Origin: Alkalispirochaeta sp.
GTDB taxonomy: Bacteria > Spirochaetota > Spirochaetia > DSM-27196 > Alkalispirochaetaceae
Direction of reading: 5' to 3'
Length of the DNA: 64,000 nucleotides
Assembly: GCA_965601925.1 (NCBI GenBank)
Contig: OZ271854.1
Span: 4,032,001-4,096,000 of the forward strand
The notes beneath the pieces are model-generated. The model made no database searches, had not been told where the DNA came from, and saw only the letters and a program-made list of their open reading frames with translations. Shown here piece after piece: positions 5,607 to 43,226 of the stretch; positions within the stretch are counted from its first letter, which is position 1; every line of letters begins with the position of its first letter. Made by a program: the position numbers and the translations under genes.

Positions 5607-5672
5607 GGATTGTCGCGTCGACTTGAGCCGCGCGATCGCGCCGGACACCCGGTTAAGGACCTGGAGGAATAG

Positions 5673-20578: not shown

Positions 20579-20632
20579 TTGACAGGCGCCGACGGCGCTC
20601 CTATAATAAACTTTCTTTCAGTAACTAAATAA
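20579..20632 (+). promoter_or_regulatory. Consensus sigma70 promoter plus operator-like motif copy 1
   Basis: TTGACA(20579)-17 bp-TATAAT(20602), then AACTTTCTTTCAGTAACTAAATAA (20609-20632). Confidence 0.8.
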
Positions 20633-20653: not shown

Positions 20654-22051
20654 ATGAAGCCACCAAAAATAGTGATCATCGGCGCCGGTAGCGCAGTGTT
20701 CGGACAACGGGCGATCTCGGCAATTCTCCGATCCGAACGTCTACGCGGATCGGAGCTCTATCTGGTCGATCTCGACGAGGGTCCGCTCGAGCTTATGACC
20801 CGTCTGGCCGAGCTCATGAACCGCGAATGGGGCTCCGGCGCAACGATACGAAGTACGACCGACCGCCGCAAAGCGCTCCCGGGAGCCGATTTTGTCATCG
20901 TCTCGGTACAGGTAGGGCCGCGCGAAGAGGTATGGGAAAAGGACTGGAGCATCCCGCTGGAGTACGGTATCCGCCAGCCCTACGCGGAAAACAGCGGGCC
21001 CGGCGGGCTCGCCCACACGGCGCGCAACTTGCCGCTCATCATCGATATCGCTCGGGATATGGAGGAGCTCTGCCCCGATGCGCTGTACATGAACTACGTC
21101 AACCCGCTCATTCGCCTCACTCTCGGAATTCACCGCTACACGACGATTAAGAGCGTCGGTATGTGCCATCAACTCCTGTGGGGGTACGCTATGGCGATGG
21201 CGCTTCTCGGCGACCGTTACGGAGTGGACGTGCCTCCGGACGTCAAGATCGATACCAATCACGAACATCGGCATTTTCGAGAGCCTCTCATGGCCGCCGG
21301 GATCAAGCATCTGGACATCAAGGCCGCCGGGATCAACCATTTCTCGTGGGTGTACGACATTCGCGATAAGGATACCGGCGAGGATCTCTATCCCCTCGTA
21401 CGAGAGCGATGGATGCACCTCGAGCGACGCAACTTCGAGCCGCTTTCGCGCGACATGTTCGAGATTTACGGCCTCATGCCGACCCCGAGCGATAGCCATT
21501 TATGCGAGTTTCTGCCCTTTGTCCACGATCCCATTAAGAAGCCGTGGGAGCGGTACGGCCTTCACACGCAGAGCTGGAAAGGCAACCATCGCCGTCGTGC
21601 CGAGCGTCGCGAACTTGCGCAACGGATCGTCGATGGAAAGGAACCGGTCGAGCAACTACGAAATCTGCGCAGCGAAGGTGTTCCGGAAGTCATAGAAGGG
21701 GCCTATTTCAACCTGAATACATATATCCATCAGCTTAACGTGCCCAACGAGGGGCTCATACCGAACCTACCCGCCGACGCTATCGTCGAGGTGCCCGGCA
21801 TCTCATCGGGACTCGGGATACGCGGGATAAGCATGCCGGCACTGCCCGAGCCGATTGCCGAGTTGTGTCGTCGCGAGCTCGCCTATAGCTCAATCGTCGT
21901 CGACGCGTGCCACCATGGGGACCGCGACCTCGCGTTGCAGGCGCTGCTTCTCGATCCGACGGTCAACGACGTCGAGAGCGCGCGGGACGTACTCGATCAT
22001 CTTCTCACCGAGTTCACACAGTACCTCCCCCAGTTTTCCCGTGGTACGTAA
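20654..22051 (+). CDS. Family 4 NAD+/Mn-dependent glycoside hydrolase (MelA-like)
   Basis: IIGAGS, GPGG, NYVNP, GMCH, GINHFSW, NLPADAIVEVP, ALQALLLDP. Confidence 0.93.
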   Translation: MKPPKIVIIGAGSAVFGQRAISAILRSERLRGSELYLVDLDEGPLELMTRLAELMNREWGSGATIRSTTDRRKALPGADFVIVSVQVGPREEVWEKDWSIPLEYGIRQPYAENSGPGGLAHTARNLPLIIDIARDMEELCPDALYMNYVNPLIRLTLGIHRYTTIKSVGMCHQLLWGYAMAMALLGDRYGVDVPPDVKIDTNHEHRHFREPLMAAGIKHLDIKAAGINHFSWVYDIRDKDTGEDLYPLVRERWMHLERRNFEPLSRDMFEIYGLMPTPSDSHLCEFLPFVHDPIKKPWERYGLHTQSWKGNHRRRAERRELAQRIVDGKEPVEQLRNLRSEGVPEVIEGAYFNLNTYIHQLNVPNEGLIPNLPADAIVEVPGISSGLGIRGISMPALPEPIAELCRRELAYSSIVVDACHHGDRDLALQALLLDPTVNDVESARDVLDHLLTEFTQYLPQFSRGT

Positions 22052-23192
22052 TCGGGCACGTTCGCTCCTCCGGAGCCCGGGGGAGCTACTCGACCCCGAT
22101 CGTTTGCGCGATGCGACCGGAGAGCCGATCGTCGGCGTCGAGCGCAGCGCCCTCTCGTCGGGTTTCGCCCATTCCGGGAGCGAACTCTATTTGATAGAGA
22201 CGGTGTTGGAGCCCCGCGGCTCGACGCAGCCGAGCGCCGGACCGCGCTTCGTGCTCAAGCGCCTCTCCTTTGCGTGGGATTGGCTCATGCAAGTCACCGA
22301 GGACCGTCGGTGCCGCTCCGTTACCTTGTGGGAGCAAGGCGTCTTGGACCGCCTACCGGATAGTATCGATACGTGCGTCGTCGACTGCTCGCGGGATGGC
22401 GACGGATGGGCCATCCTCATGCGCGACGTGGGGTTTTCGCTGGTGACCGATACGCCCTTTCTGCCGGAGCAACAGGAGACGTTCCTGAGCGCTATGGCGG
22501 CGATGCACGCGACGTTTCTCGGCGACGAGGAGCTGGACCGGTCGCGGACCGGATTGTGCGGATTGCACCACGTCTACGGGATGTTCTCACGCAGGACTGC
22601 GGCGGATCATCGCGACGCCGGACGAGACATTCATCGACGTATCGAGGAGGGGTGGCGTGCGGTGGGCGAGATGTGTCCCGCCGATGTCGCCGACATCGTG
22701 CTTCCCCTCGTGGAGGATTCGTCGCCTCTCGTCCACGCGCTGCGCCGCTATCCACGAACACTGGTACACGGCGACTTTCGCCACTCCAACATCGGATTTC
22801 TACCGGCGCGATCGTCGTCGGACGGGGGACATACGCGAGTTGGCGGTGCGCGCATGGCCCTTCTGGACTGGCAACTGGCGGTATACGCGCCGCCGTCGGT
22901 CGAGTTGGGGCGTTATCTCGGGGCCAACTCACCCTTTCTTCCGGGAACCAAGGAAGGTATTCTCGCCTACTATCGAACGGCCCTCGAACGCGAACTGGGG
23001 CCGGAACGACCTCTGGAGCCGTGGTGGACACCCCAGTTGGAGCTCGGCATGTTGGGCGGATTCGTTCAGGATGGATGGGCGATCGCGCTCAAAGCGACGA
23101 CGTGGGACGTCGGCGCCGCAACGCGAGATCACTGGAAAGCCGATCTCGAATGGTGGTCCGAGCAGGTAAGACGCGGCGCCGTCCATCTGTAG
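22041..23192 (+). CDS. APH/choline-kinase-like phosphotransferase
   Basis: FVLKR, TLVHGDFRHSNI, LLDWQ; GTG start overlaps the GH4 gene end (start approximate). Confidence 0.8.
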   Translation: MVRNRARSLLRSPGELLDPDRLRDATGEPIVGVERSALSSGFAHSGSELYLIETVLEPRGSTQPSAGPRFVLKRLSFAWDWLMQVTEDRRCRSVTLWEQGVLDRLPDSIDTCVVDCSRDGDGWAILMRDVGFSLVTDTPFLPEQQETFLSAMAAMHATFLGDEELDRSRTGLCGLHHVYGMFSRRTAADHRDAGRDIHRRIEEGWRAVGEMCPADVADIVLPLVEDSSPLVHALRRYPRTLVHGDFRHSNIGFLPARSSSDGGHTRVGGARMALLDWQLAVYAPPSVELGRYLGANSPFLPGTKEGILAYYRTALERELGPERPLEPWWTPQLELGMLGGFVQDGWAIALKATTWDVGAATRDHWKADLEWWSEQVRRGAVHL

Positions 23193-23245: not shown

Positions 23246-24409
23246 TTACCCTCGCAGATTCGAAATACGTCTGAGCGCCGCGTCGGCTCGTTCACGTGAC
23301 GCCGGCGCCGTGCTCCGCCAACGTTCCAGATACGCAATCGCCGCCGCACGATCGATACGCCGCGGCCGTTCCCCCATGATACGGCGATACGAGTCGATAC
23401 AGATCGTCGTTACCGTCTCTTGCGCAAGAGCCAACCCGCGAATCAACGGGGTACCGTCCGCCGTCGGAGCGTAGGGAGAGGCAAAGACGTCGTCGGTGGC
23501 GAGAAATCGATAGAGGCGCAAAAATCGCTCCGTATTATCAGCCAGAGAGGTCCCCGGAAGATACGACAGGTCACGGGGTAGAAAAAACGAGTCGCTCCCC
23601 AACAGCAGGCGGCCGGCATAGGTCGAAAAAAAATCGCGCGCCGCGTCTTGCCGGCTCGGGAATGCGTACTCGTCTACCCTCCTCGCCGCACTGAGTGCGG
23701 GATAGAGATAATTCCCCGGCGCCAGGTCGAAGTACGCATTGGCGTGCTCATCGAGAAATTGTGCCATCCGAATCGGTTCATCGGCGAGAAAAAGTAAATG
23801 CGGGAATATGAAGGTCGTCGCCGGAGCGCCGTTGCATACCATTCCGGCTTGCCGTATAAGCTCCTCAAAGGGCGCAACGTCGCGATTCACATAGCTCCAC
23901 GGCGCGTCGTCTCTTTCCCAGAAAAGCTGCGGATCGGCGACGTGAATGAGCACGGGCATCCCGCAGCGCCCCGCCTCGCGATAGGCATCGAGGTAGCGCG
24001 CGTCATCGAGGGCGACACCCAGCGTCGCGTGGAGCTCGGGCTTACCTTCCCACATCTTGATCCCGCGAAAACCGGCTTGCGCCATTTCGGCTACTTGCCG
24101 CGACGGATTCCACGCCGCCGCGGCTGCGTCCTCGACCACCAACGCGCGGTTGTCGAAGGAGCCGAAACCGTCGGCGAGTCCGTCCAACACAGTACACGCC
24201 GCCAGTACCTCGGGATTGAAGTTGACCGTATCGATGCCGTGTCGAAGGCGTTCGGCGCCGGATGCCGATCGATCGGCTACCCCGGCGGTGGGAAGCGACA
24301 GAACACCGATGCGACGCAAGCCGAGGAGCTCACCATAGCGCCGCAACTCGTCTATCCTCGCCGCGTCGCCGATATGGAGATGGCTATCGATTAATCCCGT
24401 CGGTACCAT
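23246..24409 (-). CDS. Amidohydrolase family (TIM-barrel metallohydrolase)
   Basis: IDSHLH, GFRGIKM, PVLIHVAD, FPH, LLGSD. Confidence 0.85.
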   Translation of the reverse strand: MVPTGLIDSHLHIGDAARIDELRRYGELLGLRRIGVLSLPTAGVADRSASGAERLRHGIDTVNFNPEVLAACTVLDGLADGFGSFDNRALVVEDAAAAAWNPSRQVAEMAQAGFRGIKMWEGKPELHATLGVALDDARYLDAYREAGRCGMPVLIHVADPQLFWERDDAPWSYVNRDVAPFEELIRQAGMVCNGAPATTFIFPHLLFLADEPIRMAQFLDEHANAYFDLAPGNYLYPALSAARRVDEYAFPSRQDAARDFFSTYAGRLLLGSDSFFLPRDLSYLPGTSLADNTERFLRLYRFLATDDVFASPYAPTADGTPLIRGLALAQETVTTICIDSYRRIMGERPRRIDRAAAIAYLERWRSTAPASRERADAALRRISNLRG

Positions 24410-24422
24410 TGATTTGCAAACG

Positions 24423-25313
24423 CTATCGGAGGGCGAAGTCGAGTGGAGCTGCGACCTCACGAGTCATAGTGAGTCGTGCATCGCGGTGACGTTGGACGAT
24501 CGAGGCGGGAAAGGCGGCCGATACGGGTCCGTACAGCATCTTGCGGGCTACGGCGCGCTGCCACGGGCGATTGAGAAACACGCGTACGCTTCGGCTTTCG
24601 GTAATCTGTTTCATGCCGACGGTGACCGCGCGACGCGGGATGCGGTCCCAGGCGCCGCCCAACGCGGTATGGGAGTTGATGGTAATCGTCTCGCGGCTCA
24701 GCTCGACGATGCGCGTGACACTCTCGAAGAAGCCGGCCTCGTCGACGGGAGGGTACGGCGGCTCATTAAAGGCGATGTGACCGTTGATACCTACTCCGGC
24801 AAAGCAAATCTCCGCACCGCCCACCGCGGCAAGCGCGCTATCGTACCCCGACGGATTTCCCGGATCGGGAAAGAACACTTGGTCGGGCCGAAATGCGACG
24901 TCCTCACCGAGGGCTACGAGCGGGCGCACCAACTCCCGGTCGACAAATGCGCGAAACGATAACGGCGAGGAGAAATCGATGAGACGCGGCGGCCCGTCCC
25001 CATCCTCAAGATACTCGTCCATAAAAAAGAGATGGAGGCCCGACAGATTGATGGGGAGTTCGGAACACAATGAGACGAACCGTCGGTATTGAAACGTGGG
25101 TCCGACGGGGACGATGAAGACGGATCGCTTGCCGACTCCGACGTTGCGCCGTATCGCACGGTACATCTCGATGGCGATACGGTAGTAGAGGTCTATCTCG
25201 GTCTCCACAACCTCGACGAGTACCTCCGAATCATCGGGGGTCGCCGGCGATGCGCCGCTTTCCGACCGCTTCGACGGGACGATCGTCGCAGCGTAGAGAT
25301 CGGACTCGCCCAT
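24423..25313 (-). CDS. NagB-like glucosamine-6-phosphate deaminase/isomerase family protein
   Basis: FFMDEY, GVGINGHIAFNEP, TVGMKQI, FPAS; the anion-binding loop reads VPVGPTFQY instead of LPTGxTP. Confidence 0.85.
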   Translation of the reverse strand: MGESDLYAATIVPSKRSESGASPATPDDSEVLVEVVETEIDLYYRIAIEMYRAIRRNVGVGKRSVFIVPVGPTFQYRRFVSLCSELPINLSGLHLFFMDEYLEDGDGPPRLIDFSSPLSFRAFVDRELVRPLVALGEDVAFRPDQVFFPDPGNPSGYDSALAAVGGAEICFAGVGINGHIAFNEPPYPPVDEAGFFESVTRIVELSRETITINSHTALGGAWDRIPRRAVTVGMKQITESRSVRVFLNRPWQRAVARKMLYGPVSAAFPASIVQRHRDARLTMTREVAAPLDFALR

Positions 25314-25316
25314 CGC

Positions 25317-26177
25317 CTATCCTTTGAGTGCGCCCGAGGTAAGACCTTTGATGATCCGCTCGTGCATAAATACGTATACGAGGACGCTGGGGATGATCGT
25401 CAGGACGATTGCGGCGAACATCGAGGTATAGTCGGTAAAAAACTGGCTCGAGAAAAACCGAATGCCGAGTTGCAACGTCCGCGCCCCGATACTCGAAGTA
25501 AGCAGGAGCGCGTAGATGAACTCATTCCACGAAAAGAGAAAGACGAACGTCCCGGCGGTGACGAGCCCCACCCGTGAGAGCGGGAAAATCACGCGAGTGA
25601 AGCGCTGATAAAAGCTGGCACCGTCGATGACCGCCGCCTCTTCGAGCTCCGCCGGAATCGATTTCATGAAGCCGTACATCAGAAAGGTCGAAATCGGGAT
25701 GTTAATCGCCGTATAGGTCAAAATGAGCGCCCACAACGAGTCGTACAGGCCCAATGCGTTGGTCAGTCGAAAATACGGCGCCATGAGGGCGATAATCGGC
25801 ACCAACACTCCGGCGATGATGGCGTTGAGAATCCACTGCTGAAAGCGAAACTTCTCCCGCGAAAAGGCGAATGCCGCCATGGAGGTGATAAGCATCGCCA
25901 ACGCCGTCGAGAAGGTCGAGACGATCACGCTGTTGAGGAAGAGCCGCGGAAGGCTCGATATGCGCATGGCGTTGAGGTAGTTCTCGAACTGCCATACGGC
26001 GGGCAGCGCGAACGGAGCGGTCTGGAGCTCCAAATTAGTCTTGAACGAGCTGATGAGGAGCCATACCAGGGGCGAAAACGTGAAGAAAAAGAAAAAGAGC
26101 AGCACTCCCCACTTGAGTGTCGTGCCGACGACCGAACCGAGGCTCCGGTTGTTGTCGGCCAATGTTGCGTGTGTCAT
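25317..26177 (-). CDS. Carbohydrate ABC transporter permease
   Basis: IPAELEEAAVIDGAS EAA loop, WNEF, terminal GALKG. Confidence 0.93.
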   Translation of the reverse strand: MTHATLADNNRSLGSVVGTTLKWGVLLFFFFFTFSPLVWLLISSFKTNLELQTAPFALPAVWQFENYLNAMRISSLPRLFLNSVIVSTFSTALAMLITSMAAFAFSREKFRFQQWILNAIIAGVLVPIIALMAPYFRLTNALGLYDSLWALILTYTAINIPISTFLMYGFMKSIPAELEEAAVIDGASFYQRFTRVIFPLSRVGLVTAGTFVFLFSWNEFIYALLLTSSIGARTLQLGIRFFSSQFFTDYTSMFAAIVLTIIPSVLVYVFMHERIIKGLTSGALKG

Positions 26178-26190
26178 GGTCTCTCCTCGC

Positions 26191-27081
26191 CTATTGGATT
26201 CGATCGGCCGCGGCGCTGCGTCGACCGAGGGCGCGAATCGTTACGATCGTCAGCACGCCGAGCACTACCAGTGTCGCTCCGATCGAATTGGCACTTCCGT
26301 AATCGAGAAAGCTGAGCATTCTATAGAGTTGAATACCGAGCACCGAGGTGCTGTTGGCCGGACCGCCGTTGGTGAGCAGAAACGTCGCCTCGAAATGTCT
26401 GAGGCCGTACGCCATCGCAAGGGTCATGGCGGTAACGAGGATATCCTTAATCATCGGCAGGGTGATAAACCACTCTTGTTGCAACACGTTCGCGCCGTCG
26501 ATCTCGGCCGCTTCGTAATAACTCTCCGGGATGGACATGGTCGAGGCGAGGACGATGATCATGAAGTACCCGATGTACAACACCTGCTGAATCAATATCG
26601 ACGGGAGCGCCGTACCGATTTCGCCCAGCCAATTGCGCGTCAGATGCTCGAGTCCCGCGAGCTCGAGAAACTGATTGATCGCGCCGTACTCGGCGTTATA
26701 GAGGGCGGCCCACATCATCGCGATAGCGACCTGGCTGATCACATTCGGCAGGAAGTACACGGTTCGAAAAAAACGCCATCCGCGGGGCTTACGGGCGAGG
26801 ATCATCGCCACGAGGGTCGCAAATCCGATCTGTACGAAGCCGAGAGAGAGAAGCCAAATGAAATTATTGCGAAGAGAGATCTGAAACGTTCGATCTTGGA
26901 AATTATCGAAGAAGTTTCGGAGCCCCACAAACTGGGGTGTGCTGATCCCGTTCCATTCGAGTGTGCTGGTAACGAAGACGAACCCCAACGGATAGATGAA
27001 GTAAAGCGTAAAGAGAAGAAGAACCGGCGCCAGAAAGAGCACGATGCCGATACGGTTTGCCTTCCGGGACTGCACAATCAT
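26191..27081 (-). CDS. Carbohydrate ABC transporter permease
   Basis: FVGLRNF, YEAAEIDGA, LTNGGP. Confidence 0.93.
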   Translation of the reverse strand: MIVQSRKANRIGIVLFLAPVLLLFTLYFIYPLGFVFVTSTLEWNGISTPQFVGLRNFFDNFQDRTFQISLRNNFIWLLSLGFVQIGFATLVAMILARKPRGWRFFRTVYFLPNVISQVAIAMMWAALYNAEYGAINQFLELAGLEHLTRNWLGEIGTALPSILIQQVLYIGYFMIIVLASTMSIPESYYEAAEIDGANVLQQEWFITLPMIKDILVTAMTLAMAYGLRHFEATFLLTNGGPANSTSVLGIQLYRMLSFLDYGSANSIGATLVVLGVLTIVTIRALGRRSAAADRIQ

Positions 27082-27109
27082 GATACTGTCGTTCCTTTAA
27101 TGCGTCGGC

Positions 27110-27135
27110 GGGCGCTCCCACGACGGGGAGCGCCC
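27110..27135. other. GC-rich stem-loop between binding-protein and permease genes (mRNA-stabilising or partial terminator)
   Basis: GGGCGCTCCC-N6-GGGAGCGCCC. Confidence 0.55.
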
Positions 27136-27177
27136 ACTCGTTACTGAATTGATACCATTCTACTACGAAACGTTGCG

Positions 27178-28440
27178 CTATCGGTCGGCGGCGACGAGCA
27201 TATCGACGAAACCCTGTGCATCGGTGCTTCCGAGTGCCAGAGCGGCGAGCGCCTGGCCGAACTCGCTCACGACGCGCACCGAGTAGCGGCTTTGGAAGTG
27301 CCCGACGACGAACTCCGCGTCGCTTGCGGCGCGAACGAACTCACGTTGGAGCGGATCGGCTCCGCTTCCCAACTCGTAACGGATGGCAAAAAGCGAGCCG
27401 GCGCGCTCCGAGACCATCGCAACGTTCGCCGGATCGGTCATGAAGCGCATGAAGGTCACGATCGCCTCGGCCTTGCGCGGATCGTCGGTGTTACCGGCCG
27501 CGAGGTTGGAGAGCAGAAACCCGATCTGATGACCCGAGTGGTCGCCGACGCGAGGAGCGGGAGCGATTGCCGTTGCGGCGTGCACCGCCGGGGCGTCTCG
27601 GTTTACGCGACCGATGTACCACGGGCCGTTAATGAACGCGGCGGTGTTACTCGAAAGGAAGTGCCCGCCCGATACACCGGCGTCTCCGCCTACCGCGTCG
27701 CGCGTGGTATTGCCGTCGGAGTACATGCGCTGCAGGACTTCCGCCGCCTCTACATAGATCGGATCACCCAAGGGAAGGTCCCATACGCCCGGGCCGCCCA
27801 GACTTGCTAAGATGTGGCTGTACCACAACATACTCGTCCACGCGTTGGAACCGCCGGTCATCTGGCTCGTGGGAACGATGTCGGCACCCTTCAGTGCGTC
27901 GGCCATCTGCCAGAACTCCTCGATAGTCTCCGGCGGAGCGTCCCAACCGGCCTCCTGGAGAAGCGTCATGTTGTACCAAATGGGAGTAATACCGATCTCG
28001 AAGGGGATCGTCTTGAGTCGGCCGTCGCGGGTGCTCTCTTCGAGGTAACTCGTTACGAAGTCGCCGGCCCAGTCGTCGGTCATGTAGTCGGTAAAATCGA
28101 AGAGCAGCTCACTGTCGTAATACTGAAAGGTCGTAGGATCGGGGTTGAACACGAAAATGTCGGGCGTGTCACCGGTGGCAAGCTGCGTGTTGAGCTTGTC
28201 GCGATAGCCGTCGGTATCGGGATTGGGCTCGATCACGACCCGAATTGCCCCGGCGTGCTGCGTGTTGAACTGCTCGACGAGTTCGGCAATCGGCTCGGCC
28301 TTGGAGTCCTGTCCGACCCAAAAGGTGGGAAAGTTGAGCACAATCTCTCCAGCTTCCTCCTGTTCGCCACCCGCAGCAACGGGAAAGACGATGAGAAGCG
28401 CAAACATCACGCCGATAAGCGCGGAAGTGATGCGATTCAT
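27178..28440 (-). CDS. Carbohydrate ABC transporter substrate-binding protein
   Basis: Signal peptide AAGGEQEE; GDTPDIF, WYNMTLLQEAG..PPET, NGPWYIG; RBS AAGGAGG. Confidence 0.92.
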   Translation of the reverse strand: MNRITSALIGVMFALLIVFPVAAGGEQEEAGEIVLNFPTFWVGQDSKAEPIAELVEQFNTQHAGAIRVVIEPNPDTDGYRDKLNTQLATGDTPDIFVFNPDPTTFQYYDSELLFDFTDYMTDDWAGDFVTSYLEESTRDGRLKTIPFEIGITPIWYNMTLLQEAGWDAPPETIEEFWQMADALKGADIVPTSQMTGGSNAWTSMLWYSHILASLGGPGVWDLPLGDPIYVEAAEVLQRMYSDGNTTRDAVGGDAGVSGGHFLSSNTAAFINGPWYIGRVNRDAPAVHAATAIAPAPRVGDHSGHQIGFLLSNLAAGNTDDPRKAEAIVTFMRFMTDPANVAMVSERAGSLFAIRYELGSGADPLQREFVRAASDAEFVVGHFQSRYSVRVVSEFGQALAALALGSTDAQGFVDMLVAADR

Positions 28441-28452: not shown

Positions 28453-28476
28453 TTATTTTCTTTCTTAAAATAACTA
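28453..28476 (-). promoter_or_regulatory. Operator-like motif copy 2
   Basis: Reverse complement TAGTTATTTTAAGAAAGAAAATAA, downstream of TTGACA (28501-28496) and next to the RBS. Confidence 0.7.
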
Positions 28477-31579: not shown

Positions 31580-33001
31580 ATGGGTATTGAACACATCAGT
31601 CAGCGCGCGCGCGAGACGGGCATCATAGAGGATCCGAAAATCGGACTCCTTATCATGGGACGTAAACGACCGGGATTCGATCCCGAGTGGGGTGCGGAAA
31701 TCAAGGGCAAAATCGTAACGGTGTTGAAAGAACTCCCGTGGGACGTCACGACTCCCTCCGACAACATAGCCGACGAGGCCGCGTTGCGCCGTTCGGTAGA
31801 AGAGTGTCGCACCGCGGGCGTTACGACGATGATCGTCGTGCAACCTACGATCTCCGACGGCCGTCTGGCTCCGTTGCTCTCTCGACTATGGGCAAAGCCG
31901 CTCATCCTCTGGGCGACTCCGGAGAAGCCGACCGGCGCGATGATCAGCGCCAACTCACTGGTCGGTACCCACGCCATGGCGGCGACCCTTCGGCAGCTGG
32001 ACCACCCGCTTGAGATCGTCTACGGCCACCCGGAGAACGAGGAGCTCCGTTCGCGTCTGGACCAAGCGATACGCGCCGTTCACGCAGCGGACAGCGCAAT
32101 GGGACGTCTGTTCGGTCTCGTCGGATATCACGCACCCGGCTTTGTCGACTTTCACGCCGATCCGGTCTTTATCAGCGACGAGCTCGCTTCGCAGTTGTAC
32201 CATATGGGTACGGTAGAGCTCATCAGCATGGTACGCGAATACACCGACGCCGATGTCGCCGACGAGGTCGCCGCGTTTCGATCCCTGGGTCTCCCCTTCC
32301 ACGACGGATTCTCTGCAGGCGCGGGAGTGAGCGCCGACGGCTCGGTTGAGCTTACGATGCAAGCGCGCTACTATCGCGCCTTTCGCGATATCTTCGATCG
32401 CGACCGGCTCGATCTCCTCGCCTTCCGATGCTGGCCGGATCTCCCCTCCGAGGTCGGCCACTGGCCGTATCTCGCCCTGGCGCGCCTCGTCTCGGAAGGT
32501 TTTCCGATCGCCATGGAGGGTGATGTCGACGGAGCGCTGGGAAGTCGCATCGCCGAGAGCGCAGGTATAGGTCCGGTATATCTCTCCGATTGGCTGGAGC
32601 ACGACCGCGACACTATTACGATTTGGCACACCGGTGCCGCGCCGTTTCAGCTTGCAGAACCGGTTGGTGCACCGGGCGGCCCCTCGATCGGCGTGCAGTT
32701 CAACAACAAAAAGCCGACGGTCGTCGAGTCGACGATTCGTGCCGGGATGGACGCAACGGTCTTTCGCCTCTGGCGTTTCGGCGGTGCGTATCATATGACC
32801 GCCCTCGAAGGAGAGACGATCACCCCTCGACGCCATCTGTTAGCGACGAACGGACTCTTCCGCACCGATGAAGTCGATATGACGAGCTGGTTTGAACAGA
32901 TGGTACAGCTCGGCATGCCGCACCACTTGTGCCTCCTCGAAGGACACCACGCCGATACACTTCGCCGTATCGCGCGCTTGCTTGGTGCCGTCGTCGTGTG
33001 A
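31580..33001 (+). CDS. FucI/AraA-fold sugar isomerase, candidate sulfoquinovose isomerase (SqvD/SftI-like)
   Basis: GRK, NSLVG, APGF, RCWPD, EGDVDG, DW, WHTG, MPHH metal and active-site motifs; pathway context. Confidence 0.75.
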   Translation: MGIEHISQRARETGIIEDPKIGLLIMGRKRPGFDPEWGAEIKGKIVTVLKELPWDVTTPSDNIADEAALRRSVEECRTAGVTTMIVVQPTISDGRLAPLLSRLWAKPLILWATPEKPTGAMISANSLVGTHAMAATLRQLDHPLEIVYGHPENEELRSRLDQAIRAVHAADSAMGRLFGLVGYHAPGFVDFHADPVFISDELASQLYHMGTVELISMVREYTDADVADEVAAFRSLGLPFHDGFSAGAGVSADGSVELTMQARYYRAFRDIFDRDRLDLLAFRCWPDLPSEVGHWPYLALARLVSEGFPIAMEGDVDGALGSRIAESAGIGPVYLSDWLEHDRDTITIWHTGAAPFQLAEPVGAPGGPSIGVQFNNKKPTVVESTIRAGMDATVFRLWRFGGAYHMTALEGETITPRRHLLATNGLFRTDEVDMTSWFEQMVQLGMPHHLCLLEGHHADTLRRIARLLGAVVV

Positions 33002-33824: not shown

Positions 33825-34943
33825 TTATCGATCATCGCGGCGGGGCGCGTGGTCCGGCAAGAGATGCTCGGCCAAGGAATCGACGGTACGCAGGGCCGAT
33901 ACGACGGCGTCGACCGGTATGCGCGACGCCATGTTGTGTATTCGGCTCCCGGCTCGGCAGGCGAACCGAGCTATCTCTTCGTAGTGATCGGAGCGCGGAT
34001 CGGAGAGTCCGAGCGTTCGCAAGCTTCCCGGAATGCCGACGCGACGGTAGAAGTCGAACACGTCGGTGAGATACTCGTCGCTGCGTCCCTCGAGTACGAG
34101 CTGCGAAAGCAACGCGACGGCAACTTCTTCGCCGTGTAAGGCGCCCCTGAGCTCCGGAATGCGGGTGAAGCCCTGGGATATTGCGTGCGCCGCGGCGACC
34201 CCGCACCCCTCGAATCCGATTCCACTCAACAGAACATTCGCCTCGACGACGCGTTCTACCGTCTCGGTCACGCGGCGGTGACACACATCGCGAACGGCCT
34301 GCTCCGCCTCGTCCCATACGATGCGAAAGCAACGCTCGGCGATCGCTAGGGCGGCTTGTGTCGGACGAGCATCAAAGAAGTTCGTCACGCCCGAGATTCG
34401 ACACTGTTCCGCCTCAAAGAGGGTCGAAAGAGCGTCGCCGATACCGGCGATGAAAAACCGCACCGGGGCATCGACGATGATCGCCGTATCGACGAGCACT
34501 GCATCGGGGTTCGTACGCATGAACAACGGGCCGAGAAACTCTCCGTCCGCGGTATAGGTAATCGCGAGTCTGCTCGTAGCCGCGTCGCTGGCGGCGACGG
34601 TCGGAACGACCACGACGGGTATATCGAGCGCCCGTTTCACCGCTTTGGCGCCGTCCTGCGCCTTTCCACCGCCGAGGCCGATTACGACGTCGCAGCGTTC
34701 GGTACGGCCGACCGCGGAAAGGCGCTCAAGCTCTTCCGGTGACGTCTCGCCGGAAAAGCGGGAGACGGTCGTCTCCACCGCTGCACGGCGTAACGTTGCG
34801 ACCAGTCGGCCTCCGTACAGAGCGAGCACGCGCTCGTCGGCGACGACGAGCGCTTTGCGTCCGAACCATGCAACGAGGTCTCCCATCTCATCGAGGAGAT
34901 GCGCCCCCTGTCGATATATGAGGGGAAACCCGATCGCCCTCAT
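33825..34943 (-). CDS. Glycerol dehydrogenase-like metal-dependent alcohol dehydrogenase
   Basis: YRQG, GLGGGKAQD, VPTVAASDA, GIGDAL, AAAHAI, LHGEEVA. Confidence 0.88.
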   Translation of the reverse strand: MRAIGFPLIYRQGAHLLDEMGDLVAWFGRKALVVADERVLALYGGRLVATLRRAAVETTVSRFSGETSPEELERLSAVGRTERCDVVIGLGGGKAQDGAKAVKRALDIPVVVVPTVAASDAATSRLAITYTADGEFLGPLFMRTNPDAVLVDTAIIVDAPVRFFIAGIGDALSTLFEAEQCRISGVTNFFDARPTQAALAIAERCFRIVWDEAEQAVRDVCHRRVTETVERVVEANVLLSGIGFEGCGVAAAHAISQGFTRIPELRGALHGEEVAVALLSQLVLEGRSDEYLTDVFDFYRRVGIPGSLRTLGLSDPRSDHYEEIARFACRAGSRIHNMASRIPVDAVVSALRTVDSLAEHLLPDHAPRRDDR

Positions 34944-34980
34944 CTCATACCTCGTCGGTACGTAGCGTGTCCGCCGTCTT

Positions 34981-36027
34981 TCAGCGATCGACGCGCGATT
35001 CGGCCAGCTCAACCGCCGCGAGGAAGCTGTCCAACCACCGATCGCCGTACTGCGTACGATACCACTCCATCATTGCGGAGCGCGCCGGCATGAACGTCTC
35101 TCGCTCCTCATCGGTAAGCTCGTGAATACGGCCGCCTCCGGCGATGAACTCCGCGTTTGCCGCTTCCTCTCGGTCTCTATTGAACGTCGTTTGCTCCGCG
35201 GCTCCGAAGGCGATGCCGTCCAGAACGATCCGTTGCAGCTCGTCCGGGAGACTTGCAAGCCACGCCTCGCCGACAAAGTAGAATCCGAACAGAAAGGTAT
35301 GTCGGTCCAGCGTACCGTACCGGATCACCTCGTCGAAGTTGTTCGACATGATATCCGGAGTAGCAATTTTGAGACCCACCACCAGCTCGGATGCCAACGC
35401 CGTGTAAACCTCTCCCCACGCTACGGGGGTCGCGGCGGCGCCGAGCTGCCTGGTAAATTCCTGTTGGAGCGGCGAGGCGATGGTGCGTATTCGTAATCCC
35501 GCGAGATCCGCGGCGGTCCGAATCGGCCTCCCGGTGGTGTAGAACGAACGCCAACGGCCGCCGTCGGAGACACCGGCCAGTCGTACATTCGGGAGGACAT
35601 CCGCGACGGCGTCCGACATCTCGTCAAAGAAGGGACCTTCCATCAGCTCCCCGACGACCGCGTCTCCGGGTATGAGATACTGTAAGTCCACGACCGCTAA
35701 CTCGGGTATGAATGGTGTAACTCCACCGATGGATGTGTGAGCCACCTCCAGCGTACCGCTATCGACCTGCTCCATGACCTCCTGATAATTTCCGAGCTGA
35801 CTACCGGAGTAAATCTCCACGACGATTCGCCCGCCGGACGCGGACTCGATGTACTCTTTGATCGCCGTCGCGCCGACATAGTCGTCGTTCACGTCGGACA
35901 CGGGTCCGGCGTGGGAGAGCTTCATCGTGTACGTGTCGGCCTCCTCTCCGGCTCCGCCCGCAAAGAGGGTCGTTCCTACGATCACAACCACCAAGAAGAG
36001 CACCATTACCGGTGATGTTCCCTTCAT
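34981..36027 (-). CDS. TRAP transporter substrate-binding protein (DctP family)
   Basis: SGGRIVVEIYSGSQLG, DLAGLRIRT, WGEVYTAL; RBS AAGGAGG. Confidence 0.92.
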   Translation of the reverse strand: MKGTSPVMVLFLVVVIVGTTLFAGGAGEEADTYTMKLSHAGPVSDVNDDYVGATAIKEYIESASGGRIVVEIYSGSQLGNYQEVMEQVDSGTLEVAHTSIGGVTPFIPELAVVDLQYLIPGDAVVGELMEGPFFDEMSDAVADVLPNVRLAGVSDGGRWRSFYTTGRPIRTAADLAGLRIRTIASPLQQEFTRQLGAAATPVAWGEVYTALASELVVGLKIATPDIMSNNFDEVIRYGTLDRHTFLFGFYFVGEAWLASLPDELQRIVLDGIAFGAAEQTTFNRDREEAANAEFIAGGGRIHELTDEERETFMPARSAMMEWYRTQYGDRWLDSFLAAVELAESRVDR

Positions 36028-36080
36028 ACGCAGCCTCCTTTTCGTTCCGACCTGTGTCGGATTATTCACGATACGAAACG

Positions 36081-37370
36081 TCATCCGCCGACCGGTAGTC
36101 CGAGCAACCGCGGGACAAAGAGCGAGATATCCGGTACGAACGTGATGATGAATATGATGATCGCGTGCACGATCCAGTACGGCGTCATCTGACGCACGAT
36201 TGCGCCGATCGAGAGTTTCGTCACCGCCGATGCGGCGAAGAGCACCAAACCGAAGGGGGGTGTAGCCAGGCCGACGGTTAGATTCACGCACATCACAATC
36301 GCAAAGTGCGTCGGATTGATGCCCATCTCAAGAAGCGTCGGCCCCAAGATCGGTCCCAAGATGAGAATTGCCGGCCCGGCATCGAGAAACATCCCGACGA
36401 AGAAGAGAAACAGGTTCATCGTGAGCAAAAAGAGGTAGCGATTCTCGGTTACGTCGAGAATGATCTCGGCAAGATTGTGGGGCACGCGCGTAACGGTAAG
36501 CACCCACCCGAACATCGCCGCCGATCCGATCACTAACAGGATGACCGCCGATTGAGACGCTGCGCGGCGAAATATCCCGCCCAGATCGGAGATCGCGATC
36601 GTCTTGAACACGAAGAGGCCCAGAACCAGCGCGTACGCCACGGCGAGTATCGCCGCCTCGGTCGGAGAGACGACGCTGAAGAGGATTCCTCCCAGAATGA
36701 TGAGGGGCGTGAGCATCGGAAAGAACCCCCGGACCGTCGCCCGACCCCTCTCGCACCACGTCGCTCTTCCGGAACGAGGAAACCCGCGTTTCGCGGCGAT
36801 AATCCTCGTCATGATCATCAACCCCGCACCCATCAGGAGCCCCGGCATGATGCCGGCGGCGAACAGCGCCCCGGTGGAGACCTCCATGATAAACGCGTAG
36901 ACGATCATGATGATGCTCGGCGGAATGATCGGCCCGATAATCGATGATGCCGCCGTCACCGCGGCGGAGAAATCGCGCGGATAACCGTCCTCCTCCATAG
37001 CCGGTATGAGAATCGCTCCGAGAGATGATGTATCGGCCACCGCCGATCCGCTCAACCCGGCAAAGAGAACGCTCGCCAGGATATTCACCTGCGCTAGCCC
37101 GCCGTGGAAGTGTCCTACCATGGCGCGGGCGAGGTTGACGATCCGAGTAGTGACACCCCCGCGGTTCATTAATTCGCCCGCGAGAATAAAAAGAGGAACG
37201 GCGAGTAGGAGGAAGGTGTGAACACCGGCGAACGATCGCTGTACGAGAGTTCCCAGCATAACCTCGCGACCGGTAACGGCGAAGTCCACCAACGGCCCGA
37301 CGGCAAGGGCGAAGACGATCGGTACGCCGAGGGCCGCGGCTACGAACACCACGATGAGATAGAGCGGCAC
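36081..37370 (-). CDS. TRAP transporter large permease (DctM)
   Basis: LLAVPLFILAGELM, SGSAVAD, GPIIPPS, PTEAA, GLATPPFG. Confidence 0.94.
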   Translation of the reverse strand: MPLYLIVVFVAAALGVPIVFALAVGPLVDFAVTGREVMLGTLVQRSFAGVHTFLLLAVPLFILAGELMNRGGVTTRIVNLARAMVGHFHGGLAQVNILASVLFAGLSGSAVADTSSLGAILIPAMEEDGYPRDFSAAVTAASSIIGPIIPPSIIMIVYAFIMEVSTGALFAAGIMPGLLMGAGLMIMTRIIAAKRGFPRSGRATWCERGRATVRGFFPMLTPLIILGGILFSVVSPTEAAILAVAYALVLGLFVFKTIAISDLGGIFRRAASQSAVILLVIGSAAMFGWVLTVTRVPHNLAEIILDVTENRYLFLLTMNLFLFFVGMFLDAGPAILILGPILGPTLLEMGINPTHFAIVMCVNLTVGLATPPFGLVLFAASAVTKLSIGAIVRQMTPYWIVHAIIIFIITFVPDISLFVPRLLGLPVGG

Positions 37371-37372
37371 GC

Positions 37373-37903
37373 CTACGCCCCCTTACGCGGCGCGAGAAGT
37401 GCAATCTGCTTACAAGCCTCCTCTACGCAGACGAGTACCATCAAAGCGTATCCAACCGGGAGGGCCGCATATGCGTATCCGAACGGAAGCCACTCCATCG
37501 TCGAGACGATCCGGCGCATGCCGCGTACCGCGAGGAGCCACCCGTGTCGCACCATCATCAACGCGACGTAGGCGGTGACGGCCAGCGCGATAAGACGGAG
37601 CGCCGTACGAGCGCCTCCCGAGACCTTTTCTACCAAAAACTCAATCGAGACGTGAGCGCCCGAGCGCAATCCGATCGGCGCGCCTAACAGGACCATCCAG
37701 ACCATAAGAATGGTAGAGGCGTCCTCGGTCCACGTGACGGGGCGATTCAACGCATATCGCATGACGACCGAGTAGAAGAGGATCGCGCAGATCACCGCCA
37801 GGATCGCTCCGATTACACCGGATAGAACCGTACACATTCGCCCGTTGAACGCTGCGAGCGCCGACGCCGCCCGTATCACACCACGTCTCCCCTTTTCGGT
37901 CAT
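37373..37903 (-). CDS. TRAP transporter small permease (DctQ)
   Basis: VVMRY..WTED, GAHVSIE; four TM helices. Confidence 0.9.
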   Translation of the reverse strand: MTEKGRRGVIRAASALAAFNGRMCTVLSGVIGAILAVICAILFYSVVMRYALNRPVTWTEDASTILMVWMVLLGAPIGLRSGAHVSIEFLVEKVSGGARTALRLIALAVTAYVALMMVRHGWLLAVRGMRRIVSTMEWLPFGYAYAALPVGYALMVLVCVEEACKQIALLAPRKGA

Positions 37904-37984
37904 TACCGTAGAATCCCTACGTAATGCTAACTCGAGAAATCGAGACGATATGTCGTCCAAACGACAAACGGGAGAAATGGAGCG

Positions 37985-39157
37985 TCAGCGACTCCGCGCG
38001 ACCTGCGTGAGATTGAAAAACTGCTTAAAGACGATATCGGTGGCGCCGTAACACGCCTGGACCGGGTCATACACCATCGGGATTACCCGACGTTCCGGCA
38101 GGGCTCGGCGAGCCGAGTTGCCCAACACCTCCGACAGAATGGGAAAACGGCTAATGAGAAGGACCGCTTCGGGATGGAAGATGTGGTGAAGGTTTCTGAT
38201 CGCAGAGGCGAGCGCAAGCCGCTCCTCGCGGAGTGCCGCCGCTACCTCTCCCACCGTCAGAGTTCGCTGCACCGCCTCCCAACTATCGACATCGTAGTCG
38301 GCCCGGAGGCGCTCAAGCATGGGCTGCTCGGCGACGCGATTTTCCAACGCCGCCTCATCGTCGGCTACCCCTTCAATCGAAGCGGGGAAGATCGAGGTAC
38401 GTCCGACCTCGATGGCGGTAGCCGTTCCGTTGAGAAAAATGTTGCCGTGGGTGACCAACGCACCTCCGACTCCCGAGCGCACCAGAATCGCTAAGAGGCT
38501 CGCCTCGTCGCGCGCGACCCCGTAATGATAGGCGCTTGCGGCGATGACGGAGGCGTTATTGTGCACAAAGACCGGCACATCGAAGATCGCCTCATAGTGG
38601 TCCTTGATCGAGTATCCGCTGAGTCCGACGATCCTCCCGTAGTGAAGAACGCGCCCGGTCACGGTGTCGACGACCCCCGGAGCGGCGATACCGATGCCGA
38701 GGAGCCGCTCTCTGTCGATCCGGCTCTCCTCGATCGCCGAGGCGATCATCGTCTCGATCGTCCTCAAAATTTCGTCGCGGTCGCAGCGGGGTGCGAGGTC
38801 TTTACTTCGTTTGTAGATGACGCAGTTGCCGAAATCGACCACGATGACCGCCACCGCGAGGCTCGAAAAATCGACCCCGACGGCGTATCCGCTCTCGGCC
38901 CGGGCGCAATAGAAGCTCGGTCGCCGGCCCTTACGCTCCCCCTCCTGTCCGTCCTCCAACCCGCGGCCGTCCTTGCATTGGCGAATGAACCCCGCCTCCT
39001 CCAACTTTGCAAAGATTCGAAACACCGTGGGCGCCTTGAGGCCGGTATGCTGCACGATCTGTGACTGCGAAATGCTTCCGTGTTGAAAAATCAAGTTGAG
39101 AACGAGCTTCTCGTTACTCTCGCGTATATCGTTACTTCGAAGGGGCTGATGCAGCAT
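37985..39157 (-). CDS. ROK family transcriptional repressor
   Basis: N-terminal wHTH (ISQSQIVQHTGLKAPTV), GRRP linker, GIGIAAPGVVD, VHNNA, GVGGA, EVGR. Confidence 0.9.
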   Translation of the reverse strand: MLHQPLRSNDIRESNEKLVLNLIFQHGSISQSQIVQHTGLKAPTVFRIFAKLEEAGFIRQCKDGRGLEDGQEGERKGRRPSFYCARAESGYAVGVDFSSLAVAVIVVDFGNCVIYKRSKDLAPRCDRDEILRTIETMIASAIEESRIDRERLLGIGIAAPGVVDTVTGRVLHYGRIVGLSGYSIKDHYEAIFDVPVFVHNNASVIAASAYHYGVARDEASLLAILVRSGVGGALVTHGNIFLNGTATAIEVGRTSIFPASIEGVADDEAALENRVAEQPMLERLRADYDVDSWEAVQRTLTVGEVAAALREERLALASAIRNLHHIFHPEAVLLISRFPILSEVLGNSARRALPERRVIPMVYDPVQACYGATDIVFKQFFNLTQVARSR

Positions 39158-39328: not shown

Positions 39329-40168
39329 ATGACTTCCGACCATCTACGGGAGCTGCAACGCAAAGCTATCGAAATACGCCGTCTTACCGTCGACGAGATC
39401 GCCTACCTCGGTGTGGGCCATTTGGGCGGCTCCATGTCCGTCGTGGAGATTCTTACCCTGCTCTACTACCATCACATGACGGTGGACCCGTCGCGTCCTG
39501 CAGACCCAAATCGCGATAAGTTCGTCATGTCAAAAGGACACGCCGGGCCGGCGCTCTATTCCATACTGGCCGACAAAGGGTTTTTTCCTACCGAAATGCT
39601 TCATACGCTCAATCAAGGCGGAACCAATCTCCCCAGCCACTGCGATATGAATCGCACACCGGGAATCGACATGACCACCGGCTCCCTCGGTCAGGGGCTC
39701 TCCGCCGCCGTCGGTATCGCGTTGGGGCACCGTCTACAGAACCTTCCGGGCCGCGTATTCGCCCTTATCGGAGACGGCGATACGAACGAGGGACAGACGT
39801 GGGAGGCGGCAATGTCGGCGGCAATGTACGGCCTATCCAACCTCGTCGCCTTCACCGACTATAACAAGATGCAGATCGACGGCACCGCCGACGCAATCAT
39901 GAACACCGATCGTCTGGCGGATCGTTGGACGAGTTTCGGGTGGTACACGCAACAGGTCGACGGTCACGACTTCGGCGCACTCGACGATGCGATGGAGCGA
40001 GCGCTCCGAGAGGACTCGCGTCCCTCGATGATTATCGCCGACACGATCAAAGGAAAAGGCGTGCCTTTTGCCGAAGGGGATTTCAAAAACCACAATATGC
40101 CGGTCACCCAGGAGCAGGCGCAACAAGCCTACGAGAGCCTGGCACGAGAAGAGGAGGCCCTCGCATGA
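39329..40168 (+). CDS. Transketolase N-terminal subunit (candidate sulfofructose transketolase, SqwG-like)
   Basis: GHLGGSMS, RDKFVMSKGH, TGSLGQG, GDGDTNEG ThDP motif, TIKGKG. Confidence 0.92.
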   Translation: MTSDHLRELQRKAIEIRRLTVDEIAYLGVGHLGGSMSVVEILTLLYYHHMTVDPSRPADPNRDKFVMSKGHAGPALYSILADKGFFPTEMLHTLNQGGTNLPSHCDMNRTPGIDMTTGSLGQGLSAAVGIALGHRLQNLPGRVFALIGDGDTNEGQTWEAAMSAAMYGLSNLVAFTDYNKMQIDGTADAIMNTDRLADRWTSFGWYTQQVDGHDFGALDDAMERALREDSRPSMIIADTIKGKGVPFAEGDFKNHNMPVTQEQAQQAYESLAREEEALA

Positions 40169-41151: not shown

Positions 41152-41285
41152 CACAGAGGCGAGACCGCGTTATACCGCCGGTCGCAAGAGATCGGCGAGC
41201 CGCCCCCACGGAGAGGTCCTCCATACGGACCGGAGCGTGTGCCGGGATGCGGCGTCGAGATGAAACACGCATACAGGAGACAATT

Positions 41286-43183: not shown

Positions 43184-43226
43184 CGCACCGCACCGCTGCA
43201 AGAACCAAGGCGAAGAAGGAGCCACC

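Follow-up and report, generated by a model that had tools for sequence, protein, structure and literature searches.

A GH4 glycosidase as a candidate sulfoquinovosidase within the sulfoquinovose regulon of an Alkalispirochaeta

Introduction

The 64,000-nucleotide stretch of Alkalispirochaeta sp. DNA analyzed here (contig OZ271854.1, positions 4,032,001 to 4,096,000; the whole stretch is referred to as the window) carries an island of predicted genes for sulfoquinovose (SQ) catabolism and, at 20654-22051 within that island, a gene encoding a glycosidase of family GH4. Genome comparison indicates that this GH4 protein is probably a cytoplasmic, NAD+/Mn2+-dependent alpha-sulfoquinovosidase. That its gene is part of the sulfoquinovose regulon can be said with much greater confidence. 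A first-pass annotation of this DNA had proposed the same function for the gene, and the computational tests run lend that proposal support, on genomic grounds.

Sulfoquinovose is a plant sulfosugar whose recycling begins when it is released from the head groups of sulfolipids. Production is put at about 10 billion tonnes a year (PMC10755693). Reviews up to July 2026 list only GH31 and GH188 sulfoquinovosidases (PMC12890257, PMC13436972), in agreement with the first-pass annotation, and an ISME J paper of June 2026 names only the same two families; GH4 appears in PMC10755693 as a structural comparison. The literature searched, which had the original sulfo-transketolase papers (Liu 2021, Chu 2023) outside it, contained no GH4 sulfoquinovosidase, no sulfoquinovose work naming Alkalispirochaeta, no mention of sulfoquinovose together with alpha-galactosidase, NAD and Mn2+, and nothing usable on residues binding the C6 phosphate in GH4. 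The features with which the argument begins are as follows:

20579..20607, plus strand: sigma-70-type promoter of the GH4-kinase operon, TTGACA-17-TATAAT, 12 of 12 consensus bases
20612..20627, plus strand: operator-like site TTTCTTTCAGTAACTA, five bases 3' of the -10 box, fitting TTTC-N5-RTAACTA
20654..22051, plus strand: GH4 glycosidase, candidate sulfoquinovosidase, 465 amino acids, ATG start, intact open reading frame (ORF), Pfam GH4 N- and C-terminal domains
22041..23192, plus strand: APH-fold small-molecule kinase, 383 amino acids, GTG start, 11-nucleotide overlap with the GH4 stop, Pfam APH 30.9 bits (cut-off 23.2)

Promoter, operator and regulon

The perfect sigma-70 promoter that the first-pass annotation had placed before GH4 is indeed found at 20579-20607, where all 12 consensus bases are matched. 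A loose scan for sigma-70 promoters found one site with 1.5 expected, and the weight of this promoter therefore derives not from the scan count but from the perfect match and from the conservation of TTGAC..TAnAAT 5' of GH4 in orthologous spirochaete loci.

The pattern TTTC-N5-RTAACTA matches exactly four sites in the entire genome (5,053,413 bases, a single contig), with 1.15 expected from base composition, and all four lie in the island (20612, 28461, 31465, 39296), at the promoters of GH4, of the ABC importer's substrate-binding protein (SBP) and transaldolase, of the isomerase, and of the transketolase; the pattern was written after the sites had been seen, so that its informative part is the lack of any match elsewhere in the genome. 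Similarly, a 16-mer consensus, TTTCTGAAAATAACTA, allowing up to three mismatches, has six matches in the window with 0.05 expected, these being the sites at the SBP/transaldolase, isomerase and ROK/transketolase promoters, while the GH4 operator-like site departs from the consensus in its spacer. Genome-wide, all five sites with two or fewer mismatches to the 16-mer fall within the island.

Comparable elements accompany GH4 in related bacteria. In spirochaete loci, the conserved TTGAC..TAnAAT 5' of GH4 orthologues is followed by a related element, AGTTTCTT(A/T)CAG, and two loci (L033, L053) keep both promoter and element before GH4 despite having no pathway gene within 10 kb; at four others (L037, L039, L041, L042), GH4 lies directly after a DASS gene and is without a promoter of its own. 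In the relative G020, with a 3.9-Mb chromosome, GH4 (start at 54085) is separated by 1.7 Mb from the sulfo-transketolase (sulfo-TK) cluster at 1.749-1.768 Mb. The 20-mer TAGTTTCTTTCAGWAAATAA, with one mismatch allowed, occurs exactly twice in the G020 genome, once 24 bases before GH4 and once before the transketolase operon, and the reversed control pattern has zero matches there. The shared operator described by the first-pass annotation is thus common to the island promoters and is retained in G020, where GH4 is unlinked from the pathway.

Orthologues and their neighborhoods

A word-indexed search returned 3707 matches among 8000 scored candidates, of which the best 120, found in Spirochaetaceae, Alkalispirochaeta and Chloroflexi, share 64-100% identity with the window protein and are called, where named, hypothetical protein or alpha-galactosidase. 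An exhaustive search of representatives placed the clade in a single 50%-identity cluster (representative 63% identical, 664 bits), followed by sisters at 48% and 46% and by all others at no more than 45%.

Orthologue loci were taken from one genome per species, and the 43 loci so obtained were reduced to 41 by dropping tblastn hits that covered less than half of the query (L073, L074). These 41 loci, with GH4 proteins 61-82% identical, belong to Spirochaetes and Chloroflexi. The first-pass annotation had suggested looking for co-occurrence of orthologues with sulfoquinovose pathway genes, and co-occurrence with sqw/sft genes was found: at least one sulfoglycolysis marker is present in 29 of the 41 loci, including 23 of the 29 whose flanks reach 8 kb or more and 6 of the 12 shorter ones. 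Together with the shared operator, these loci show GH4 to be encoded among, and apparently co-regulated with, sulfoquinovose catabolic genes.

The loci with markers represent three context types, corresponding to pathway types, in two phyla. The first comprises transketolase, RpiB, SqwD, SucCD and DASS genes. In the second, a transaldolase gene directly precedes GH4, often with SAF and GD_AH genes that are SuyAB-like; SAF and GD_AH proteins are the family of sulfolactate sulfolyase SuyAB, reported in Chloroflexi sulfo-transaldolase (sulfo-TAL) clusters (PMC9594981). The third is an operon of Anaerolineae (examples are L055-L058, L047 and L070; positions recorded for this type are L058 7626-8867, L055 8546-9682, L057 11467-11769, L068 11019-12188 and L067 13026-14291) that combines an SftI-like isomerase, an ABC transporter, a PFK-family kinase, a Cgl0159-like aldolase, GH4, SuyAB-like genes and a LarA-like racemase, the last matching a malate racemase model at 542 bits. 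Judged by gene content, this operon would encode a route of the Embden-Meyerhof-Parnas (EMP) type that includes its own desulfonation step and, possibly, a sulfolactate racemase. As a separate observation, an aldehyde:ferredoxin oxidoreductase gene adjoins GH4 in four Chloroflexi loci (L062 2820-4673, L063, L066, L067), its product possibly being an anaerobic sulfolactaldehyde or sulfoacetaldehyde oxidase.

The sister clade served as a control. Among loci from metagenome contigs obtained with query P0123, 14 encode a GH4 protein 45-50% identical to the window protein, and markers are found in none of these 14, nor in any of the six longer than 6 kb; their neighbors are instead genes for a DegT aminotransferase, a shikimate-dehydrogenase-like protein, a glutamate-synthase-like oxidoreductase, and DeoR with SIS genes. 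Because the sister loci are without markers, it is the orthologous clade, and not this GH4 branch generally, that is linked to sulfoglycolysis.

A comparable pattern emerges from 22 genomes of the family, for which orthologue thresholds were set after bimodal identities had been seen. GH4 orthologues (at least 76% identity, next-best at most 44%) are present in 11 of the 22 (G000, G001, G002, G003, G006, G008, G012, G013, G015, G018, G020), and 10 of these 11 carry a pathway marker, nine having both SftI-like (at least 63%) and SqwD (at least 75%) proteins and G013 having SqwD only. The remaining genome, G012, is 78% complete and has neither marker, and the contig bearing its GH4 gene (L042) begins with a DASS gene. 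Markers occur in 4 of the 11 GH4-negative genomes (both in G007 and G021, the isomerase only in G014 and G010), and the other seven GH4-negative genomes (G004, G005, G009, G011, G016, G017, G019) have neither marker.

The GH4 protein

Both Pfam domains of the family are present above their gathering scores, namely Glyco_hydro_4 at residues 5-182 (166.6 bits, cut-off 23.2) and Glyco_hydro_4C at residues 225-437 (135.9 bits, cut-off 24.1), and the gene is the only GH4 gene of the genome. The same Pfam scan matched no Gfo/Idh/MocA model, as would be seen in GH188 (SqgA), and no GH31 domain, as in the TIM barrel of YihQ. The top curated NCBIfam model is alpha-galactosidase PRK15076 (MelA, NF011657), matched over the full length at 295.8 bits; since the cut-off is 486, the protein is not a MelA alpha-galactosidase by the NCBI criterion. 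The AglA model scores 130.9 bits against a cut-off of 650.

By sequence, the nearest solved structure is the alpha-galacturonidase LplD of B. subtilis (3fef, E 2e-44), followed by 6-phospho-beta-glucosidases, AglA and 6-phospho-alpha-glucosidases. Consistent with this ranking, an AlphaFold2 (AF2) model built on 18 orthologues (mean pLDDT 88.3) has LplD 3fef as its best Foldseek match (template modeling (TM) scores 0.82/0.88), with 6-phospho-glucosidases and an alpha-glucuronidase next, and the listed GH4 structures all outrank the first non-GH4 match, a malate dehydrogenase at rank 50. Since the best matches are LplD and then 6-phospho-glucosidases and an alpha-glucuronidase, substrates with an anionic C6 appear to be normal for the family.

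The residues expected of a NAD- and metal-dependent GH4 enzyme are kept. A Rossmann GxGS motif is found as IIGAGSAVFG at residues 8-17, with the acidic residue D39, and G10, F16 and D39 are invariant in an alignment of 18 diverse GH4s; we take these residues to represent the nucleotide-binding GxGS motif and the acidic residue at the end of strand 2. C171 and H229 are likewise invariant, both among orthologues and in the 18 diverse GH4s, and are the putative Mn2+ ligands, a Mn2+ site with conserved Cys and His being described for the GH4 enzyme BglT (PMC10755693).

The four motifs quoted in the first-pass annotation are all present, ENSGPGG at 112-118, NYVNP at 147-151, CHQ at 171-173 and SDSHLCEF at 279-286, but its description of them as unusual stands only in part. 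Ser114 and HLCE are specific to the clade when compared with the nearest non-orthologous GH4s, which have ENGGPG for ENSGPG and GDxHxxEY in place of HLCE, whereas CHQ is common to the relatives and V149 alternates with T within the clade; as an argument for a sulfonate substrate, the unusual residues are weak. Further clade-specific features are an extra residue in VGPRE, RQP before YAEN, W176, and EG where others have ER, and the alignment positions of those near active-site motifs are R107-Q108-P109, S114, W176, C284 and EG341-342.

Genes of the island and a proposed mechanism

The remaining features of the island, and one gene beyond it, are listed below, the enzyme names being derived from family models and gene context:

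23246..28440, minus strand: ABC importer operon (Pfam and NCBIfam), convergent with the GH4-kinase operon; operator at 28461 in the divergent promoter region
27178-28440, minus strand: SBP of the ABC importer operon
26191-27081 and 25317-26177, minus strand: permeases of the ABC importer operon
24423-25313, minus strand: NagB-like gene, glucosamine-6-phosphate deaminase superfamily (90 bits, below cut-off), at the end of the ABC operon
23246-24460, minus strand: amidohydrolase-like gene, at the end of the ABC operon
28461..28476, plus strand: operator site between the SBP and transaldolase genes, one mismatch to the 16-mer, exact pattern match
28589-29245, plus strand: transaldolase, SftT/SqvA-like, TIGR00875 289 bits (cut-off 246), divergent from the ABC operon
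29265-30695, plus strand: SSADH-type aldehyde dehydrogenase, sulfolactaldehyde dehydrogenase-like, SSADH 540.7 bits
30717-31334, plus strand: LigT-like, 2_5_ligase 104.5 bits
31458..31480, no strand assigned: palindromic operator 5' of the isomerase gene, 0 and 3 mismatches on the two strands
31580..33001, plus strand: SftI/SqvD-like sulfoquinovose isomerase, divergent, NF048012 131 bits (cut-off 700), Fucose_iso_C match
33825-35012, minus strand: glycerol dehydrogenase, in the ROK/TRAP row 33825..39157
37373-37960 (DctQ), about 36129-37358 (DctM) and ending at 34981 (DctP), minus strand: TRAP transporter, from domain scans
37985-39157, minus strand: ROK regulator, operator 39157-39179 at its start
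39157-39179 and 39296-39311, no strand assigned: two operator sites in the ROK/transketolase divergent region, 16-mer and pattern matches
39329-40168 and 40165-41151, plus strand: split transketolase, in the sulfo-TK module 39329..46785
41247-41771, plus strand: RpiB/SqwI-like isomerase, sulfo-TK module
41768-43183, plus strand: SqwD/SauS-like acylating sulfoacetaldehyde dehydrogenase, SauS model 522 bits against 600
43143-44396 and 44393-45289, plus strand: SucCD-like ligase, sulfo-TK module
45286-46785, plus strand: DASS exporter, sulfo-TK module
56258-57607, plus strand: GH1 beta-glucosidase, about 9.5 kb beyond the island, no operator motif

By family and context, the predicted island genes match the published sulfo-TAL and oxidative sulfo-TK pathways, for which SqwI is described as a PF02502 protein (PMC9594981) and SqwD and SqwKL are described in PMC12890257; orthologues of the isomerase are found in the sulfo clusters of relatives. 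A parallel is offered by Faecalicatena, in which a bifurcated transketolase/transaldolase pathway and an SQ-induced glycerol dehydrogenase are reported (PMC11659671). The glycerol dehydrogenase of the island sits in what is likely a ROK-TRAP operon and, together with the Faecalicatena parallel, counts in favor of a sulfoquinovosidase. The claim of the first-pass annotation that GH4 is the only glycosidase in the island holds for the ORFs scanned between 17.6 and 46.8 kb; given the GH1 gene at 56258-57607, this applies to the island and not to the window.

Taken in order, the predicted steps would be as follows. Imported sulfoquinovosyl glycerol, or related SQ glycosides, would be cleaved by GH4 into sulfoquinovose and glycerol, the former feeding the adjacent combined sulfo-transketolase/sulfo-transaldolase pathway and the latter presumably being used via the co-regulated glycerol dehydrogenase. 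Catalysis would proceed by oxidation at C3 by NAD+, deprotonation at C2, elimination of the aglycone, hydration and re-reduction, with the C6 sulfonate taking the place of the phosphate or carboxylate of other GH4 substrates. The ROK regulator of the island may repress all of the operator promoters and release them when sulfosugar is present.

Several other observations concern the island and its surroundings. The NagB-like and amidohydrolase-like genes of the co-regulated ABC operon hint at an extra isomerase or deaminase step or at an amino-sulfosugar substrate; a NagB-like gene also lies directly before GH4 in two Chloroflexi loci (L071 9185-9964, L074 9113-9898), and L035 was noted in the same connection. 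When the SBP was compared with solved structures, only generic sugar-binding proteins were found (best E 2.9e-13), none named for SQ-glycerol. For the LigT-like 2',3'-cyclic phosphodiesterase gene, which shares an operon with the transaldolase and aldehyde dehydrogenase genes, no part in sulfoglycolysis is evident. A Crp-family regulator gene is also present in the island. A longest-ORF reading mis-assigns 34981-37404 (minus strand), where an intact DctM lies (390 bits, no stops); DctP must in fact begin downstream of 36291. An L-fucose isomerase (1029 bits) with FucU at 3675-6107 (plus strand) is unrelated to the island, and a second, distant SftI-like gene (27% identity) occurs elsewhere in the genome (G000 4657446-4658618).

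The coupled kinase

The kinase gene overlapping the GH4 stop was missed by the first-pass annotation. Its start, GTG 22041, was set by comparison with orthologues, whose N-termini match, the longest frame being 21855-23192, and an HGDxRHSN motif can be read from the sequence. The kinase follows GH4 in 24 of the 41 orthologue loci and was not detected in the other 17; it is absent from all seven loci with a PFK-family kinase and present in 12 of 18 with transketolase or transaldolase. The AF2 model (pLDDT 91.5) has PsiK, NahK, MTR kinase and choline kinase as its best folds; the Foldseek matches, at TM 0.4-0.53, are all generic APH-fold kinases, and by sequence no solved structure was matched below E 0.1. 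At a guess, the kinase turns the aglycone into a phosphorylated C3 acceptor, or else it acts by phosphorylating the glycerol moiety.

Other candidate sulfoquinovosidases

The genome contains two GH31 genes, whose products score 157 and 180 bits with the YihQ equivalog model (cut-off 553), so that, with respect to YihQ-type GH31, this is the yihQ-less setting in which the first-pass annotation had proposed to look for co-occurrence of GH4 orthologues with sqw genes. The model matched best is MalA (514 bits) for one and alpha-xylosidase (473 bits) for the other; against solved structures, the first ranks maltase-glucoamylase at the top (500 bits) and the YihQ entries near the bottom (about 99 bits). 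One has a LacI regulator, a monosaccharide-type ABC transporter and a lactonase as neighbors, the other unrelated genes. YihQ scores, structure ranking, gene context and distance from operator-like sites together rule out these GH31 proteins as the true sulfoquinovosidase of this genome, a rejection that covers the YihQ type; SqgH, a separate GH31 clade filed by CAZy under subfamily 3 (PMC12780224), lay outside the comparison.

Pfam GFO_IDH_MocA has 28 matches in the genome (E<=0.01), 24 of them over the cut-off, and an NCBIfam scan of these 24 proteins named none as sulfoquinovosidase, in a library that may hold no such model. The first-pass annotation had pointed to a co-induced GH31 or GH188 elsewhere in the genome, combined with GH4 orthologues unlinked to sqw genes, as evidence that would count against GH4; no GH31 or Gfo/Idh/MocA gene was found within 12 kb of an operator-like site, the six three-mismatch 16-mer sites outside the island all being 12 kb or more from any such gene.

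Comparison with known systems

The NAD+-dependent sulfoquinovosidases of the GH188 SqgA type (Kaur et al., 2023, PMC10755693) offer a close functional parallel: as gateway enzymes in SQ clusters without a GH31 sulfoquinovosidase, they do what is predicted of the window protein, by the kind of chemistry predicted for it (transient C3 oxidation by NAD+, elimination and hydration), and both are cytoplasmic. However, SqgA has a fold of the Gfo/Idh/MocA type and requires no metal (PMC10755693), whereas the window protein is a GH4 with a Mn2+-type Cys/His pair, the families being unrelated beyond the Rossmann domain. YihQ/AtSQase (GH31_13) and SqgH share the predicted substrate and pathway position but are classical retaining hydrolases of another fold and free of cofactors.

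Within GH4, LplD (3fef) is the closest solved relative (27% identity) and acts on an alpha-glycoside with an anionic C6, although its substrate bears a carboxylate on a galacto sugar and its motifs differ from those of the window protein (GDTVGPGG against AENSGPGG, CCHE against MCHQ, GDRHLAEF against SDSHLCEF); to our knowledge, LplD is not linked to sulfonate genes. The GlvA/AglB-type 6-phospho-alpha-glucosidases and the 6-phospho-beta-glucosidases (1u8x, 6dux, 1s6y) share the GH4 fold and cofactors, and in their substrates the C6 of a gluco sugar bears a tetrahedral anion, an arrangement that sulfoquinovose mimics; Glu112 of the window protein matches the Glu of their QETxGPGG motif. Nevertheless, identity is only 20-29%, the C-terminal halves align poorly, and their substrates arise from the phosphotransferase system or from kinase phosphorylation. 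The MelA type (NF011657) provides the best-scoring curated model, over the full length, but differs in its shortfall from the cut-off and in genomic context.

Alternative explanations

Several observations weigh against assigning a sulfoquinovosidase function to GH4, in addition to the after-the-fact definition of the operator pattern. Markers are lacking at 12 of the 41 orthologue loci, of which six have long flanks (L033, L035, L036, L049, L053, L072), and the relatives G007, G021 and G014 possess pathway genes but no GH4 orthologue, having in its place a GH116 gene after the ABC genes (G007, L075 328-2967), a sulfatase gene adjoining the isomerase (G021, L076 1646-3043), and two xylose-isomerase-like TIM-barrel genes with TauE and two unassigned ORFs (G014, L078 1-6019). 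Additionally, the 22 genomes, being related, are non-independent samples. GH188 is excluded only in part, with 3 of the 24 Gfo/Idh/MocA candidates (L021, L023, L024) compared with solved structures and giving weak matches to generic oxidoreductases only. A GH31 gene is found near GH4 in three Chloroflexi loci (L066 7373-9769, directly before GH4; L048 1-1977; L074 1088-3499). The encoded proteins, of about 800 residues, are 64-71% identical to each other and 31-34% to the GH31 proteins of this genome, and are MalA-like (YihQ model 157 bits, best solved match 6jr6); they could represent a further sulfoquinovosidase clade or an alpha-glucosidase, and could be the real sulfoquinovosidase in those bacteria, GH4 having another task. 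Gluco as opposed to galacto (sulfofucoside) specificity cannot be told from the sequence of GH4. Lastly, no described sulfoquinovosidase needs a kinase like the overlapping one conserved here in 24 of 41 loci, and the true substrate may be phosphorylated.

This last point leads to an explanation that we regard as unlikely, namely that GH4 belongs to the sulfoquinovose regulon and cleaves a different glycoside, such as a kinase-phosphorylated substrate, a sulfofucoside, an amino or N-acetyl sulfosugar, or an SQ-containing oligosaccharide. Pairs of kinase and GH4 phospho-glycosidase, and the many solved GH4s acting on 6-phospho-glycosides, speak for a phosphorylated substrate, but the C6 of sulfoquinovose cannot be phosphorylated, the kinase goes undetected in 17 of 41 loci and is missing from all seven with PFK, and its fold (TM about 0.5) has no specific sugar-kinase match. 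Other substrates of this kind are favored by the NagB-like and amidohydrolase-like genes of the ABC operon (with NagB-like genes before GH4 in L071 and L074), by the galacto-specificity of the closest relatives (LplD, and the MelA model at 296 bits) and by the three co-occurring GH31 genes, whereas the SftI-like isomerase, transaldolase, transketolase and SqwD fit sulfoquinovose itself.

Two further explanations carry less weight. It is improbable that GH4 is a neutral alpha-galactosidase or alpha-glucosidase, merely co-regulated, for co-arriving head groups such as digalactosylglycerol from thylakoid lipids or glucosylglycerol. That PRK15076 is the best NCBIfam model, that many orthologues are named alpha-galactosidase by the Joint Genome Institute (JGI), and that a sulfonate-binding residue in GH4 is only putative would agree with such an enzyme; yet the PRK15076 score is well under the cut-off, the clade holds closely together, at 61% identity or more, and is set apart from its next relatives (at most 48%), and the sister clade is not SQ-linked. 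Among the families sought beside GH4, a set that did not include galactose or glucose catabolic genes, only sulfonate-pathway genes were found, and SuyAB-like genes lie directly downstream of GH4 in Chloroflexi. Finally, GH4 chemistry runs through a 3-keto intermediate, and some clusters already have another glycosidase (GH31, at three loci), as would suit an NAD-dependent oxidoreductase, epimerase or eliminase acting in vivo on free sulfoquinovose or a pathway intermediate. Such a non-hydrolytic role is very improbable, however, as all 18 of the diverse GH4s in the alignment share the Cys and the His and the modeled structure keeps the whole GH4 fold; we know of no GH4 that is non-hydrolytic.

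Significance

If GH4 is indeed a sulfoquinovosidase, a wider proposal may be made, though only tentatively. The compact GH4 clade (at least 61% identity, in Spirochaetes and Chloroflexi) could represent a third, independently evolved sulfoquinovosidase family, a gateway, dependent on metal and NAD, to clusters of the sulfo-TK, sulfo-TAL and sulfo-EMP types that escaped YihQ-anchored surveys; in many genomes it would be translationally coupled to a new APH-fold kinase, tying the release of glycerol to the supply of a phosphorylated C3 acceptor for transketolase or transaldolase.

The shared operator defines a regulon that is directly testable. Were the sulfoquinovosidase function true, GH4 would gain the C6 sulfonates as a new class of substrate and would take its place beside GH31 and GH188 as the third family with sulfoquinovosidases. 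A missing gateway would thereby be filled in clusters of Spirochaetes and Chloroflexi that come from soda lakes, sediments and mats and, as surveys use GH31 and GH188 as markers, GH4 would provide an additional marker for SQ degraders missed by current screens.

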